Source of the DNA: Octopus vulgaris
Lineage: Eukaryota
Assembly: GCA_951406725.2 (NCBI GenBank)
Contig: OX597819.1
Location: 34,534,001 to 34,598,000, forward strand
Reading direction: 5' to 3'
Length of the DNA stretch: 64,000 bases
The position numbers and the translations under genes are program-made. Under the pieces are notes generated by a model. The model made no database searches. It had not been told where the DNA came from and was given only the letters and a program-made list of their open reading frames with translations. Within the stretch, counting starts at the first letter, position 1. Each line of letters begins with the position of its first letter. This document shows positions 11,021 to 63,547 of this stretch, piece by piece.

Positions 11021-11727
11021 TATATATATATATATTGTTATATTTCGGAATGGTCATATTGCCAGTTTAGCCAATAAAAACACACGCACTATATATTTGG
11101 TGTTATTTTGCTTCAGTGATATTTATTTTTTACATTAATCTTAATCTTATTTCGGCCAAAGTTCTTTCGTCACACTCCTGTGACCGCATCAGTGGTCCTT
11201 TGTTTTCTTCTCACTTACTTGTGTCTCTCCTTACTAACCGTCAGCCATTTTGTATTTCTATTGTATGTCTTCATTTGCGCATGCTTATATCTCTATGTGC
11301 GTCTATGTTTATTTAGTGTGTGTGGGGGGGATGCCTGTAATATTTGTATCTTCTGGTTATATACATTCTTGTAATTTGTATTTTGTTTTTGTTGTTGTTG
11401 CTTTTGTTCTAATTTTATTCATGTGTTTACATCCACCCATTATTATCATTACATATGCTTGTATGTATGTATAACAACAATATTAGTAATAATAATAATA
11501 AATCTAATCGAAAAAAAAAAAAAAAAAAAAAAAAGAATATACATATACATATATATATATATATACATACATATACATATACATATATATATATATATAT
11601 ATACATATATACACACATATATACACATATACATATACATATATATACACATATACATATATATAGATATTCATTTCTATTTCTTTAATTACCTGTGTAT
11701 TTATTATGTTTGCAGGATCCACTATTG

Positions 11728-12349
11728 TCATATGTTGTGGTGTGCGCTATTGCTCCATTCTAGTTTTCTATTCAGGCTAGGTTTATTTTCTATTATATGT
11801 GTAGCTTCTGTAATTTGTCTAATTGTTGCATCTGTTCTATGTGTGGACAATATCTTAATCTCTATGTTATTGATTGATCCCCCGTGTTCTTGTTCGGCGT
11901 GTTGGTACAGAATCGATGAGCTTTTACCTTCCTTGAGTTGTCTCCAATGTTCATTCACCCGCTCACCAATGCTTCTTGCAGTTTCCCCTACGTATGTTAC
12001 TGTCTTGTTACTGCATCGTCCCTCTATACATCTTATACTATAGACCACATTTCTGGCTTTACAGTTCGTTTGTGGGCTAAATCTACATACAGTGCAATAG
12101 TTATCCGTACAGAGAGTTCTACTAAAAGGATAGATTCTACCAATTATAGATCTGATAGGGTTGCCTGGCTTTTCAACAACCTTAATTCTTAGTTTAAGTT
12201 TATCTAGGGTCCTTCTAAAGCGGTACGCTAGTTCACCTCCAGGGGTGGTGTCAACGAACATGACACTCTGGTATTTATGGCTATCATACCAAGAGTTGGC
12301 CTTCCTTATTTTCTTTTTTGTCCTTTCTATAGTGTTCCATGACTTGTTC
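11728..12349 (-). pseudogene. C-terminal ~205 aa of PLE protein: linker, Cys-rich motif and GIY-YIG endonuclease; RT domain missing
   Basis: Uninterrupted frame [72 protein letters not shown] matches PLE GIY-YIG (VVY/YVG, R, E, N and CCHH residues). The upstream part of the 375-aa ORF call is only the antisense of the other arm. Confidence 0.92.
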
Positions 12350-12553
12350 GAAGGTAAAAGCTCATCGATTCTGTACCAACACGCCGAACAAGAACACGGG
12401 GGATCAATCAATAACATAGAGATTAAGATATTGTCCACACATAGAACAGATGCAACAATTAGACAAATTACAGAAGCTACACATATAATAGAAAATAAAC
12501 CTAGCCTGAATAGAAAACTAGAATGGAGCAATAGCGCACACCACAACATATGA
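12350..12553 (+). pseudogene. Inverted duplicate of the last ~67 codons of the GIY-YIG ORF
   Basis: [16 protein letters not shown]...SAHHNI* is identical to the end of the minus-strand ORF. Confidence 0.9.
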
Positions 12554-13079
12554 CAATAGTGGATCCTGCAAACATAATAAATACACAGGTAATTAAAGAA
12601 ATAGAAATGAATATCTATATATATGTATATGTGTATATATATGTATATGTATATGTGTATATATGTGTGTATATATGTATATATATATATATATATATGT
12701 ATATGTATATGTATGTATATATATATATATATGTATATGTATATTCTTTTTTTTTTTTTTTTTTTCTCGATTAGATTTATTATTATTATTACTAATATTG
12801 TTGTTATACATACATACAAGCATATGTAATGATAATAATGGGTGGATGTAAACACATGAATAAAATTAGAACAAAAGCAACAACAACAAAAACAAAATAC
12901 AAATTACAAGAATGTATATAACCAGAAGATACAAATATTACAGGCATCCCCCCCACACACACTAAATAAACATAGACGCACATAGAGATATAAGCATGCG
13001 CAAATGAAGACATACAATAGAAATACAAAATGGCTGACGGTTAGTAAGGAGAGACACAAGTAAGTGAGAAGAAAACAAA

Positions 13080-45540: not shown

Positions 45541-45900
45541 ATATTAATTTTTTTTTTTTTTCATATTTCTTTATTGCCCACAACATAGAGGGGACAAACA
45601 CGGACAGACAAAGAGATTAAGTCAATTACATCGACTCCAGTGCATAACTGGTGCTTAATTTATCAACTCTGAAATGATGAAACGGTTGTTTGCCACACAG
45701 AAATATGAGGGATGTTAGCCACACGAACCCTTTAGTATTTAAATCAGCCATATCCAGCCTAAATATGCTTCCTGCTTTATGTTCTAACAGGCCAGGTCCA
45801 GCCTATCACACCTACCCTTCAATGCCACTACAAAATATAGAATCTCATCATCAAAATTGTGAAACTAATTTTGAAGCAATAACATAATGCAAGATGAATT

Positions 45901-46288
45901 GGGATGGAAGCACTCCGTCGGTTACGACGATGAGGGTTCCGGTTGATCCGAATCAATGGAACAGCCTGCTCGTGAAATTAACGTGTAAGTGGCTGAGCAC
46001 TCCACAGACACGTGCACCCTTAACGTAGTTCTCGGGGATATTCAGCGTGACACAGAGAGTGACAAGGCCGGCCCTTTGAAATACAGGTACAACAGAAACA
46101 GGAAGTAAGAGTGAGAGAAAGTTGTGGTGAAAGAGTACAGCAGGGATCCCCACCATCCCCTGCCGGAGCCTCGTGGAGCTTTTAGGTGTTTTCGCTCAAT
46201 AAACACTCACAACGCCCGGTCTGGGAATCGAAACCGCGATCCTATGATCGCGAGTCCACTGCCCTAACCACTGGGCCATTGCGCCTCC
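45901..46288 (-). mobile_element. tRNA-derived SINE (head A, tail type 2) with TSD
   Basis: Nearly identical to 35839-36224, with 11-bp TSD caagatgaatt. It is nested in a piggyBac-type MITE. Confidence 0.9.
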
Positions 46289-46569
46289 ACAAGATGAATT
46301 AAAAACAATGTGAATAAAAAAAGCAGAACATTTCAGAGAATAATCTGAATGCTAAAGGGTTAAAAATATAATGAATATGTTAGCTTCCCAAGAGAGATGG
46401 CATTTCAAAAACAAGAATGTATACAATGTATTCCTTCCTGTAAAGGATTGTCCTAATGAAAATCCCTAAAACATAATAAAAAACAAAATAAATCCAAAAT
46501 TTAAAAATAGAAAAATATTGCTGGATTATTCCAACAAAAAATCTATGAAATACATCAGAACTGTTACTA

Positions 46570-46952: not shown

Positions 46953-47608
46953 AGGCAGCAAGCTGGCAGAATTGTTAGCAAGCTGGACAAAATGCTTAGT
47001 TGTATTTCATCTATCTTTACAATCTGAGTTCAAATTGTGCTGCAGTCAACTTTGCCCTTCATCCTTTTGGAGGTCAATAAATAAAGTACAAGTGAAACAC
47101 CAAGGTCAATGTAATCAACTATTCTCTAACCCCAAAGTTCCGGGGCTTGTGCTTTTAGTAGAAAGGATTATTATTAAAGGTGGCGAGCTGGCAGAAATGT
47201 TAGCACCGACGGGTGAAATACTTAGCGGTATTGCGACTGCCTTTATGTTCTGAGTTCAAATTCCGCCGAGGTTAACTTTGCCTTTCATCCTTTCGGGGTT
47301 GATAAATTAAGTACCAGTTACGCACTGGGGTCAATGTATTCGACTTAATCCCTTTGTCTGTCCTTGTTTGTCCCCTGTATGTTTAACCCCTTGTAGGCAA
47401 TAAAGAAATAAGAATCATCAGCATGCCAGGCAAAATGCTTAGCACCATTTCATCCCTCCTTACATTCTGAGTTCAAATTCCACCACAACCAACTTTACCT
47501 TTCATCCTTTAGGAGTCAATAAAATAAGTACTAGAGAAACATTAGGGTCAATAAAATCAACTTCACCTCTTCCCAAAAATTTCAGGTTTCATGCTTTTAG
47601 TAGATAGG

Positions 47609-48329: not shown

Positions 48330-49519
48330 TGTGTGTACGTATGTATTCACAAATATGTGTTTGCATGGTTGTGACTTCCTCTTCTCTTGACATTGTCCAA
48401 AACAAGGGAAGGACACAAAATGATGTCACCATATAGACATGCAAATAATGTCACAGTATAAATGGTACCATTGGTTACAGCTGCTGTGAAAACATGTCAT
48501 CATTCAGCTGTCCCATGTTTGATAAATCAGAGGAAATAGCACCTTACTTGCAAACAGGTAAGAGCTAACAAAAGAAAGGGCATACCACCAGGGAGTGACA
48601 GTGTGGTAGGAAGTTCGCTTCCCAATCACATGGTCCCAGGTTCAGTCTTCTACTATTGCCTCAGGGCGACCAAAGTCTTGTGAGTGGGTTTAGTAGATGG
48701 AAATTGAAAGAAGCCCATCATGTGTGTGTGTGTGCGCATTTCTTTGTGTTTGTGTTTGTCCCCCACTACTGCTTAACAACTGATGTTCTTATGTTTATGT
48801 TCCTGTAACTTAGCAGTTCAGCAAATGACATTGACAGAGTAAGTACCAGGCTTTAAAAAATGATAAATACAAGGATCAGTTCATTCAACTAGCATAGAAA
48901 AGGTGGACATTAAAATGATGATGGTGAAGGTGGTGATGATGATAATGATATATTTCATAAAATTCATTCTGACTGGGACTTCGAAATTTACAAAATTTTG
49001 CCTGATGAATCATCCAACCAGACGGGTTGAATAAGCTGTCAGCCGAAACTTAAAATGCCGATTAAAATGAATTCAGTAATAAATTTTAATTAACTTTCAG
49101 TGTCGAGTCTCTTCATTAATTAAGAAGTGTTTTGTTGCTACCTTTTAACTTGATTTTAAATAACTTCTTTAATTTAATATATGTGTATGTACATATGCAA
49201 TAACTTGTTATGCAAAAAGGTTAATGATGATCTGAGTCAATCTGTTATTAAATATATACATTGCCAACTACATGTTGATTGCTATGTTCATTGTTTGGTT
49301 CTGAATTCTATAGAAAATCTATAAAGATAACTTAAAAGTGGAAATATAATCAAAAGTGTATATTGTTGTTAAATGTTCGAAATACAAGACTAGAAAAACA
49401 GCCAACAACTGATGAAAGGTCATTTTTTATGCTTGTTTTGCTTTCCATTTGTGTCTTGTTCCGAAGAATAGTTCATGTGTACTGTTTCGTACTGTTTCAT
49501 GATGTCCTGTGCCCACATA

Positions 49520-49555
<36 letters not shown>

Positions 49556-49557
<2 letters not shown>

Positions 49558-50121
49558 TATAAATGAGGGTGAAAAATTAGATATTAATTTAATAATACCG
49601 TCAGTTTAACACCAAGTGGCCTAGCACATAGAAACCAGAGAGACAGTACAAATTTATACATAAATATAAGAGAGTTAACGTTAAGTGGCTAACTCTTAAA
49701 TTAATATCTAATTTTTCACCCTCATTTATAAATTTATAAAATAAGTATGCTGCAGCAAATATTGTATGCGGTATTGGTTTCCACGGAGTCTTAGCATGCT
49801 TTTGGCGGGAAGCTAAACCACAACTATGTATGCAATCAATCAGACCGCATGAGTATTTTATCGCCCGTGTGGATCTGATAAATTGTATCGAGGACAAATA
49901 CTGCTGATGAATTATAGACATATATGTGAGTATAATTGCATATTATGTTGATAAAGAAACAATTGTTCAGTATTAATCTATCTTTTCATTGTATTTCGCT
50001 TCCCTTACGTTGAAGGTAATGTTATTTCTTCTGTGGAAACAATCTTCGGTGGCTATACCAGAATAAGGAGCTATTTCTAGCACTAGAGTTAGCCACTTAA
50101 CGTTAACTCTCTTATATTTAT
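49556..50121 (+). mobile_element. Hammerhead-containing non-autonomous PLE/retrozyme-like insertion with interlocked inverted repeats
   Basis: Two 37-bp perfect inverted pairs (49556-49592/49696-49732 and 49660-49696/50085-50121), an internal hammerhead, and flanking (TA)n. Confidence 0.75.
49897..49974 (+). ncRNA. Minimal type I hammerhead ribozyme (predicted)
   Basis: aatactg CTGATGA [45-nt stem II region] GAAA C aatt G T T cagtatt. Perfect 7-bp stem I, intact CUGANGA/GAAA core, and palindromic ACAATTGT stem III. Predicted cleavage is after 49967. Confidence 0.8.
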
Positions 50122-50182
50122 ATATATATATATACGTATAGATGTAAGTATGTACATATACGTATGTATATATGCATATATA

Positions 50183-51519: not shown

Positions 51520-51932
51520 TTACTACAAGTCGTATTTTTGCCACATGTCAAACTTCCAGTAATATTCTGCTTAAGGATTGGCAAATTTTATGGGGTTTTT
51601 TCTTCTTTTTTTTTCAAAAATAAAGAAGCAAAAACAATTTTGCTTTTTAGGCATTTATTTTTTTTTTCCATAATTTCCTTTACTTATTGTTCATGTACTT
51701 TTTCTTCCATGTGAATTTATACATATGCTATAAACAGACATGCAAAGACAGTCAGCCAGACAGACGCATTTTATGACAAAACATACACACACACACACAC
51801 ATATTTATATAGGTTTGCGAGTGTGTACACAAACATTATTCATTAAAAAATTCTGCTTGTTGACAATCCTACAAAATAAACCAATTATAATCTATAATAG
51901 TAGAAGTTAACTTAACCTGTTCTCAATAATTC

Positions 51933-52102
51933 GGTGTAGGAGTGGCTGTGTGGTTAAGTAGCTTGCTTAGAAGCCACATGGTTCCGGGTTCAGACCCACT
52001 GCATGGCACCTTGGGCAAGTGTCTTCTACTATAGCCTCGGGCCGACTAAAGCCTTGTGAGTGGATTTGGTAGATGGAAACTGAAAGAAGCTCGTTGTATA
52101 TA

Positions 52103-52153
<51 letters not shown>

Positions 52154-52360
52154 ATGTTTGTGTGTCTGTGTTTGTCCCCCCAACATCGCTTGACAACCGA
52201 TACTGGTGTGTTTATGTCCCCGTAACTTAGCGGTTCGGCAAAAGCGACCGATAGAATAAGTACTAGGCTTACAAAGAATAAGTCCTGGGGTCGATTTGCT
52301 CGATTAAAGGTGGTGCTCCAGCATGGCCACAGTCACATGACTGAAACAAGTAAAAGAGAG
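51933..52360 (+). mobile_element. Dominant tRNA-derived SINE with internal (TA)n(TG)n; full copies also at 60102-60507 (+), 29271-29678 (-) and 20369-20963 (+), plus many fragments
   Basis: Head ggagtggctgtgtggt..ggttcagtcccactg, an internal microsatellite, and tail catggccacagtc..gactgaaacaagtaaaaga. It is repeated throughout the window. Confidence 0.9.
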
Positions 52361-62278: not shown

Positions 62279-63547
62279 CTGGGGTTGAACAAAATAACGG
62301 AAACACCTTCAAATTTCAAATAAGCTTATTTTAATATCGGGTAGGACCACCTTTGGCAGTAATTACAGCTTGAATTCTACAAGGTAAGGACTCGTACAAA
62401 GTTTGAATTGTTTCCAAAGGAATTTTTGTCCATTCTTCAGCTAAAGCAGTCTGCAGTTCTTGTAGTGATGCTGGTGAAGGATATCGACTCCTTACTTGTT
62501 TTTTCTAAAATGCACCATAAATGTTCAGTAATATTGAGATCTGGGGACTAACATCACCAGATAAGATGTTCAACTTCACTAGAATGTTCCTCATGCCATT
62601 CAGTAACAACTTTAGATGTGTGAATTGGTGCATTATCATCCTGAAAGATTGTGTTTCCTTCCGGAAACAGTTCTGCAACCATAGGATGAATTTGATCAGA
62701 TAAAATGCTAAAATAACCTTGACTATTAATTCTGCCATGAAGGAAAACCAATGGGCTGGCAGATTTCCAAAATACAGACCCCCAGATCATCACAGATCCT
62801 TCTCCAAGTTTAACAGTTGGAAGAAGGCAATCTGGGCCAAATGCTTCTTTTGGCTGTCTCCACATGTATACTCGGCTGGTGGTCAGAAATAAGGTAAATG
62901 ATGACTAGTCCAAGAAAATAACATTCTTCCACTGCTCTAGGAACCAATTCTGTAGGTTTTTACTCCACTTTAAATGCTTTGTAACATTTGTTTTTGAAAG
63001 TAGTGGTTTTCTGGTTGCTGCCCTCCCATGAAATCCAGCTTTGTGCAGCTCCCAGTGAACAGTTTTTATGGAAACTGGGTTCTCAAGGTGGTCATTAAAC
63101 TCTGCAGTACTTTTGGGAGCTGCATTTTTGTGATCCTTTCTAACAATTCAAGTAAGAGTTCGGCAGTCCCTATCTGAAAGTTTTGGTTTTCTTCTGGAGT
63201 TTTGTTTCAACACAGAGGTTTTTCCCTCTTTCTCAAGGGCTATCATTATTTTCAAGAGAGTACTTCTTAATACACCAAACATTTCGGCTGTTTTTCCTTA
63301 TGCTAGCACCTGCCATATGAGCACCAAACATTTTGACCTCTTTGAAAGTTCAATAGATCTGTCATTTTAATGAATTTTAATTACCTTTTTTCTCATATCT
63401 GAAAAGAAACAGCAATTTTGGCAAAAACATATTAAACACACTATTAATAAATCAAAAAAGGCATAAAAATAAACAAGCTTTTGATGATTTTTATAGATAT
63501 TTCAAAATTATGATGCTAGATGTTTCCATTATTTTGTCCAACCCCTG
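62279..63547 (-). mobile_element. Tc1-family DNA transposon, full length (~1.27 kb), decayed
   Basis: 27-bp TIRs ctggggttgaacaaaataacggaaaca / tgtttccattattttgtccaacccctg, with TA at the left end. Transposase motifs lie on the minus strand. Confidence 0.93.
62330..63365 (-). pseudogene. Tc1 DDE transposase pseudogene (frameshifts and stops)
   Basis: PTVKLGEGSVMIWG, IFQDDNAPIH and SPDLNITEHLW motifs. The ends are approximate. Confidence 0.88.

Follow-up and report, generated by a model that had tools for sequence, protein, structure and literature searches.

Hammerhead ribozymes have already been described in Penelope-like elements (PLEs) and in retrozymes, and the class is not new. The metazoan PLE motifs compiled in PMC4209133 are of type I and combine a CUGANGA box, an extra base between positions 9 and 10.1, an enlarged helix II and a palindromic helix III; the compilation also sets out the dimer logic of hammerheads with a small helix III and reports weak cleavage by PLE representatives. 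Animal retrozymes, as presented in the main text of PMC7229834 and in the parts of Li et al. 2026 (10.64898/2026.07.22.740005) that we drew on, are non-coding, carry one type I hammerhead, form self-paired circles and have been proposed to use PLE machinery, a link that these two sources argue from co-occurrence and phylogeny. Hallmarks of PLE insertions, as given in sections of PMC8557442, are inverted 5′-truncated copies and (TA)n targets, and the purified PLE protein, in the experiments of PMC11167929 that we drew on, cleaves both strands of AT-rich DNA, extends each of them and primes synthesis within its RNA.

We analyzed a window of 64,000 nt from Octopus vulgaris (contig OX597819.1) that carries a motif of this kind. 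As set out below, the motif is almost certainly a real hammerhead and the DNA around it is very probably an insertion of the PLE type. Our preferred reading, which we regard as likely, is a non-autonomous, non-LTR-retrozyme-like unit of 493 nt mobilized by Penelope-like machinery. In the literature outside subscription papers we found nothing on cephalopod hammerheads, retrozymes or inverted retrozyme insertions, while bioRxiv supplements may list similar motifs; the main text of PMC7229834 contains none of the words "inverted", "octopus" and "cephalopod". The parts of the hammerhead are as follows.

49897-49903, plus strand: 5′ strand of helix I (AAUACUG), joined to CAGUAUU by 7 Watson-Crick pairs
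49904-49910, plus strand: core box CUGAUGA (C3 to A9), read from the sequence
49911, plus strand: A left unpaired after A9, ahead of helix II, from folding; an extra base typical of PLE hammerheads
49912-49954, plus strand: helix II hairpin of 17 pairs, loop at 49930-49935 (6 nt), U-A closing pair, from folding
49955-49959, plus strand: extra A and core box GAAA (G12 to A15.1; GAAA at 49956-49959), from sequence and folding
49959-49966, plus strand: palindromic helix III, ACAAUUGU, 2 bp with a tetraloop as monomer and an 8-bp duplex as dimer, from folding
49965-49967, plus strand: GUU triplet with H17 at 49967, read from the sequence
49968-49974, plus strand: 3′ strand of helix I (CAGUAUU); position 49971 varies between copies

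The motif contains the CUGANGA and GAAA boxes, the NUH triplet and A15.1-U16.1 of a type I hammerhead, and it has the type I topology of an open helix I (7 bp) with closed helices II (17 bp) and III (2 bp). From hammerhead numbering, the cut would be expected between 49967 and 49968. A first-pass annotation of the same DNA had described the motif as a type I hammerhead like those of PLEs, with a 7-bp stem I and CUGAUGA, GAAA and GUU elements. The stem is present as seven Watson-Crick pairs (49897-49903 with 49968-49974), each element lies in the sequence at the position listed above, and the core, topology, extra base and palindromic helix III agree with the class. Among the 56 motifs of PMC4209133, GUU is the triplet in 15, and helix I reaches at most 6 bp as given in the PDF text of that compilation, compared with 7 bp here.

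Two alternatives are that the repeat DNA, being AT-rich, contains the motif by chance, and that the site is a C/D box snoRNA with its terminal stem and UGAUGA; we consider these readings extremely improbable. The window contains 26 CUGANGA sites on its two strands, and the hammerhead site alone is closed by a helix I of at least 4 bp. Block-wise dinucleotide shuffles produced a helix I of at least 7 bp in 0 of 500 cases and of at least 4 bp in 14 of 500. As a further control we took at least 120 metagenome stretches that carry both core strings, a looser pattern whose matches were all taken as chance; among the matches listed, 0 of 120 had a helix I of at least 6 bp and the longest measured 5 bp. 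Both sets of counts are somewhat flattering, since the motif descriptor was drawn after the site had been seen. The exact motif pattern gave no match in metagenome and viral contigs. The fold of the 78 nt alone, with a z of -1.8, is what a chance match can claim in its favor, and for a snoRNA there is an Rfam snoR21 match that covers exactly 49897-49974. This match was rejected, as it reaches 20.8 bits where the cut-off is 45, with E=4.1, and box D (CUGA) is absent before the 3′ stem. Neither reading accounts for a site that lies within a multicopy element of PLE-type insertion anatomy.

The 45 nt that the first-pass annotation assigned to domain II, and called atypically long, were recovered when we counted between the CUGAUGA and GAAA boxes. 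Helix II has 17 bp, compared with 8 bp or less among the 56 motifs in the PDF text of PMC4209133. The attata/tataat helix that it placed there has to be given up. These six pairs have a probability of 0.0 both alone and in context, 19 bases ahead of GAAA would stay unpaired if they formed, and the whole-motif fold that includes them reaches -1.5 kcal/mol, compared with -12.2 kcal/mol for the fold with the 17-pair hairpin. In the hairpin, 49912-49929 pairs with 49936-49954, with one A·G mismatch after the fourth pair and one bulge. Its pair probabilities are mostly >0.9, and the stability of domain II was matched by 1 of 500 mononucleotide shuffles.

The core had also been called well-formed, and its bases are all intact. 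A49911 faces A49955 and the first pair of helix II is U49912-A49954, hence the G10.1-C11.1 pair is absent. Because an unpaired A thus stands on either side of helix II, the core is not fully regular, and since this usual feature at 10.1-11.1 fails, we file the motif as a variant rather than as a plain member of its class. The irregular 3′ A49955 can be described in one of two ways: either helix II opens with an A·A mismatch in place of the conserved pair, or it closes with U-A and is followed by an AGAAA box. Among the 56 motifs tabulated in PMC4209133, where G-C is the usual closing pair, U-A closes helix II in 2, and one box reads AGAAA; exceptions to the 10.1-11.1 pair before G12 have been published (PMC3088659, and the parts of PMC4209133 and PMC7229834 that we drew on). 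The A·G mismatch at 49916/49950 falls after 4 bp, which is the site of loop 2 in canonical hammerheads, and we speculate that it might interact with sequence lying past helix I. The first-pass annotation had suggested an Infernal-type search as a check; our Rfam search returned no hammerhead model at gathering score, nor did one appear when all 48 matches with an E of 10 or less were considered. The dimensions of the motif fall outside those published and the Rfam models do not recognize it, so that whole families of this type may be missed by descriptor searches.

The hammerhead lies in a 566-nt insertion within (AT)n that consists of two pieces placed head to head, with the junction at 49696.

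49523-49554, no strand: left (AT)n tract, presumed insertion target, read from the sequence
49556-49696, minus strand: inverted 141-nt piece, X(37)-Y(67)-Z(37), which ends in (AT)n, read from the sequence
49696-50121, plus strand: sense piece of 426 nt, Z-W-hammerhead-V-X, read from the sequence; highly self-paired as RNA
49696-49732, plus strand: block Z, 37 nt, identical at 37 of 37 positions to the reverse complement of 49556-49592
49777-49813, plus strand: 5′ arm of predicted long-range helices around the hammerhead, paired with 49998-50040 at a mean probability of 0.90-0.99
50085-50121, plus strand: block X, 37 nt, which runs into (AT)n and is identical at 37 of 37 positions to the reverse complement of 49660-49696
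50119-50134, no strand: right (AT)n tract, read from the sequence

Since X and Z are each present twice, the two pieces describe a unit that is circularly permuted and measures 389+104 = 493 nt, with the order W-hammerhead-V-X-Y-Z followed by W again. The two 37-nt overlaps therefore bear out the permuted structure that the first-pass annotation had assumed. The fold of the 426-nt sense piece has a z of -4.52 and was matched by 0 of 100 shuffles, the antisense fold has a z of -0.87, and of 32 control windows folded alongside the element, 0 reached a value as low as its own. We saw no further copy, no tandem array and no autonomous partner of the element in the window.

This anatomy shares features with two described systems. 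As in the PLE insertions detailed in parts of PMC8557442 and PMC11167929, there is an adjacent inverted 5′-truncated copy at the 5′ end, a (TA)n target and two alternative 3′ ends. The two ends are 104 nt apart here, compared with a 30-40 nt "tail" in those insertions, and unlike in them both ends are AT-rich like the target and no ORF is present. Together with the 5′ truncation gradient described below, the inverted copy and the (TA)n target are the marks of a PLE-type insertion. With the non-LTR retrozymes of PMC7229834 and Li et al. 2026, in so far as those texts describe them, the element shares a non-coding, low-GC and self-paired unit with one type I hammerhead, the self-pairing being judged on the fold of the 426-nt sense piece, and it also shares the occurrence of more-than-unit insertions beside monomer copies. 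Its 493 nt exceed the 170-400 nt of the circles given in the main text of PMC7229834 and fall within the 51-972 bp given in the parts of Li et al. 2026 that we drew on. The main text of PMC7229834 describes canonical hammerheads in tandem arrays, whereas the hammerhead here is of the atypical PLE type and the copy stands in (AT)n as a monomer, both inverted and permuted.

Twenty listed sequencing runs, from 10 studies and under 4 organism labels, share part of the stretch, none of them with half its words; none of these is registered as RNA, which says nothing about expression. We analyzed copies in the contigs of 4 of 24 listed runs, placed on the stretch, of which 774, 610, 469 and 56 matched, mostly at 90-99% likeness. 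In run X1 the summed depth is ∼1-3 × 10^5 at the Y-Z end and 10^4 within the hammerhead's 3′ half, and it drops to 6 × 10^2 where W begins; most single listed records of this run have a depth of 27-62, and a summed depth is no copy number. We take this fall in the 5′ direction to be the slope of 5′-truncated retrocopies. Copies of the family most often have their 3′ end at Z, as judged by a depth peak and by loose contig ends, and those loose ends continue into (TA)n. A search with the Z-end pattern gave no match in genome and viral contigs. We also note that 49556-49631 has 7-20 times the depth of 49632-49650 and that several different loose ends join near 49595-49632. These last ∼75 nt seem to be common to other families or to very short copies, and may be a candidate RT recognition element.

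The Z-to-W junction is crossed by diverged records in 3 of the 4 runs (X2 13, X5 22, X8 27 and X8 28), and the W-to-hammerhead junction is crossed in run X8 (records 27 and 29). Because both junctions recur, the permuted order belongs to the family and not to one locus, and the recurrence of Y-Z-W implies that the template was multimeric or circular. The same observations bear on the possibility that we are looking only at the pseudo-LTR (pLTR) of an autonomous PLE, inserted as a truncated, partially tandem and inverted copy, with neither a self-standing 493-nt unit nor a circular RNA. The extra base after A9, the long helix II and the lack of a canonical loop-loop motif are all traits of the pLTR type, depth at the Y-Z end is 20-30 times that of the hammerhead region, as though this end were common to a larger family, and retrozymes are proposed to derive from pLTRs in the part of Li et al. 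2026 that we drew on. Set against this, the Z-to-W junction recurs in diverged records, none of the tested frames of the insert has a Pfam match, and a contig that appeared to run out of the unit beyond 49807 in fact continues in homologous sequence. On this balance we think a bare pseudo-LTR quite unlikely and keep the self-standing 493-nt unit as the preferred reading.

That contig, X8 record 28, has 523 letters and a depth of 192, compared with 7-25 for the other listed X8 records, and carries Y-Z-W in one piece. The idea that it passes from the unit into an autonomous body was rejected in view of the letters beyond 49807, where 19 of the 30 listed match the window and ∼9 would be expected. 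Upstream of 49711 its 152 letters equal 15+18+37+67+15, provided that a 15-letter loose end before 50067 belongs to it, an assignment that the circle arithmetic assumes for an otherwise unnamed end. After 49807 it has 267 letters; subtracting an overlap of 30 letters gives 237, which is the length of 49808-50044. An assembler with k=31 reports one turn of a cycle as the unit plus 30 letters. The record, with 523 = 493+30, would thus fit one turn of a circle, and the same contig would result from DNA in a tandem array or from RNA transcribed off such an array. All runs consisted of contigs, in which neither cleavage, nor an RNA end, nor a circular junction was observed, and that X8 is RNA is a guess.

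Whether the predicted hammerhead cleaves seems to us about evenly balanced. As a monomer, helix III has a probability of 0.12-0.14 in context, while the ACAAUUGU self-duplex, the self-complementary stem III of the first-pass annotation, forms 8 bp at -6.4 kcal/mol. From these folding predictions, the best reading is that the hammerhead would need dimerization or help from protein. The expectation of dimer-dependent activity had been raised before; the weak monomer helix and the possible 8-bp duplex favor it in the model, but there is no second hammerhead motif at the locus, and this single-motif copy therefore cannot dimerize in cis. The label "minimal" was also loose, in that a 2-bp helix III with a tetraloop is retained, an arrangement found in canonical metazoan hammerheads and in some PLE variants covered by PMC4209133.

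A related possibility is that the motif is a hammerhead relic, or an RNA structure without catalysis, inactive through its A·A mismatch and long helix II, and that the family spreads without cleavage. The 10.1-11.1 pair that is lost here is the second most conserved one (PMC3088659), and the MFE structure ties up core bases 49905-49908 with 49962-49965 (P 0.22). In the purified system, according to the experiments of PMC11167929 considered here, the hammerhead cleaves only with protein and is dispensable for PLE insertion in vitro; in the parts of Li et al. 2026 used here, 1 of 9 predicted Xenopus dimers cleaves and 8 of 9 do not. Against an inactive motif stand the intact core bases and the precedents in PMC4209133 for a U10.1-A11.1 closing and an AGAAA box.

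The 40 variant rows listed for the copies (46 further rows exist, and haplotypes were not given) include none in the core or helix III, which is a weak argument against a relic with about one expected. Four of the 5 listed change sites in the motif are 49919, 49938, 49921 and 49971, and only the last of these breaks pairing: 49919 C>T and 49938 G>A retain their helix II pairs, and 49921 T>A, the majority letter, is by inspection absorbed by a shift of the bulge from 49943 to 49945. The changes 49971 T>C and T>G, together the majority of depth, break helix I if 49900 is unchanged, and this partner position is absent from the 40 listed rows. Across the sense piece, 19 listed variants fall at predicted paired positions, where the pair is preserved by 7 and lost with 12 when the partner, mostly outside the listed rows, is taken as unchanged, which weighs against our preferred reading; calls of a gained pair at 49761 and 49858 were hairpin-loop artefacts and were dropped. 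We consider a dead hammerhead rather unlikely, and we retain a mobile unit whose hammerhead may act in dimeric or protein-assisted form.

In the mechanism that we propose for this unit, it would depend on a PLE for two enzymes, a reverse transcriptase and a GIY-YIG endonuclease. Tandem copies elsewhere would be transcribed, and two hammerheads would pair through the ACAAUUGU palindrome, perhaps with the help of protein, and cut after GUU, freeing a unit-length RNA able to circularize. The PLE enzyme would nick both strands of the (AT)n tract and prime cDNA from internal AT-rich sites of a template that is either circular or longer than one unit. One cDNA would have started at the X end (426 nt) and the other at the Z end (141 nt), and the two, extended from opposite nicks, would have been joined head to head at 49696. 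The present copy is probably a passive single-hammerhead insertion. A stronger version, which we offer tentatively and with well under even confidence, is that an abundant circular RNA of ∼493 nt, with its hammerhead of 17-bp helix II and AGAAA box, is reverse transcribed by the PLE enzyme from internal AT-rich sites. If this is true, a head-to-head inversion in (TA)n on a permuted monomer would be direct structural evidence that PLEs mobilize retrozyme circles. One insertion here unites a retrozyme-like permuted monomer with a PLE insertion signature, and the question of who mobilizes animal retrozymes, and from what template, can be tested by mapping copy ends in the genome.

A Pfam search of the tested insert frames gave no match, and no RT or GIY-YIG ORF was found at the hammerhead locus. 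As to a coding origin of W, one plus-strand frame has neither a homologue nor a Pfam match. The last 27 residues of a second W frame likewise have no Pfam match; the end of this frame is reminiscent of a GIY-YIG C-terminus, and W may thus have had a coding origin. A minus-strand frame across the motif gave no match in one search and 7 short matches to repeat proteins in another (1 of 7 inspected), which we took as chance. PLEs can carry introns, and a good-looking splice donor, AAG/GTAATG, lies on the sense strand at 50015-50023, 50 nt downstream of the predicted cut site; no joint in the contigs supports splicing there.

No host exons were recognized in the window. Among 139 frames scanned of the 231 listed, the only Pfam match is HTH_Tnp_Tc3_2 (E 1.2e-10), in a Tc1/mariner-type transposase fragment on the minus strand at 62908-63147. 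A second, unrelated PLE-type insertion occupies 11278-13000, with part of an ORF at 11731-12360 on the minus strand that contains a GIY-YIG domain just under the cut-off (Pfam E 0.00039) with a Cys-rich linker ahead of it. The inverted arms of this insertion, 416 nt (100%) and 257 nt (99%), are nearly identical, and it is therefore probably young. SINE-like repeats with inner microsatellites lie at 45900-46290, 47170-47410, 48580-48860 and 51930-52350, and these we take to resemble octopus SINEs.
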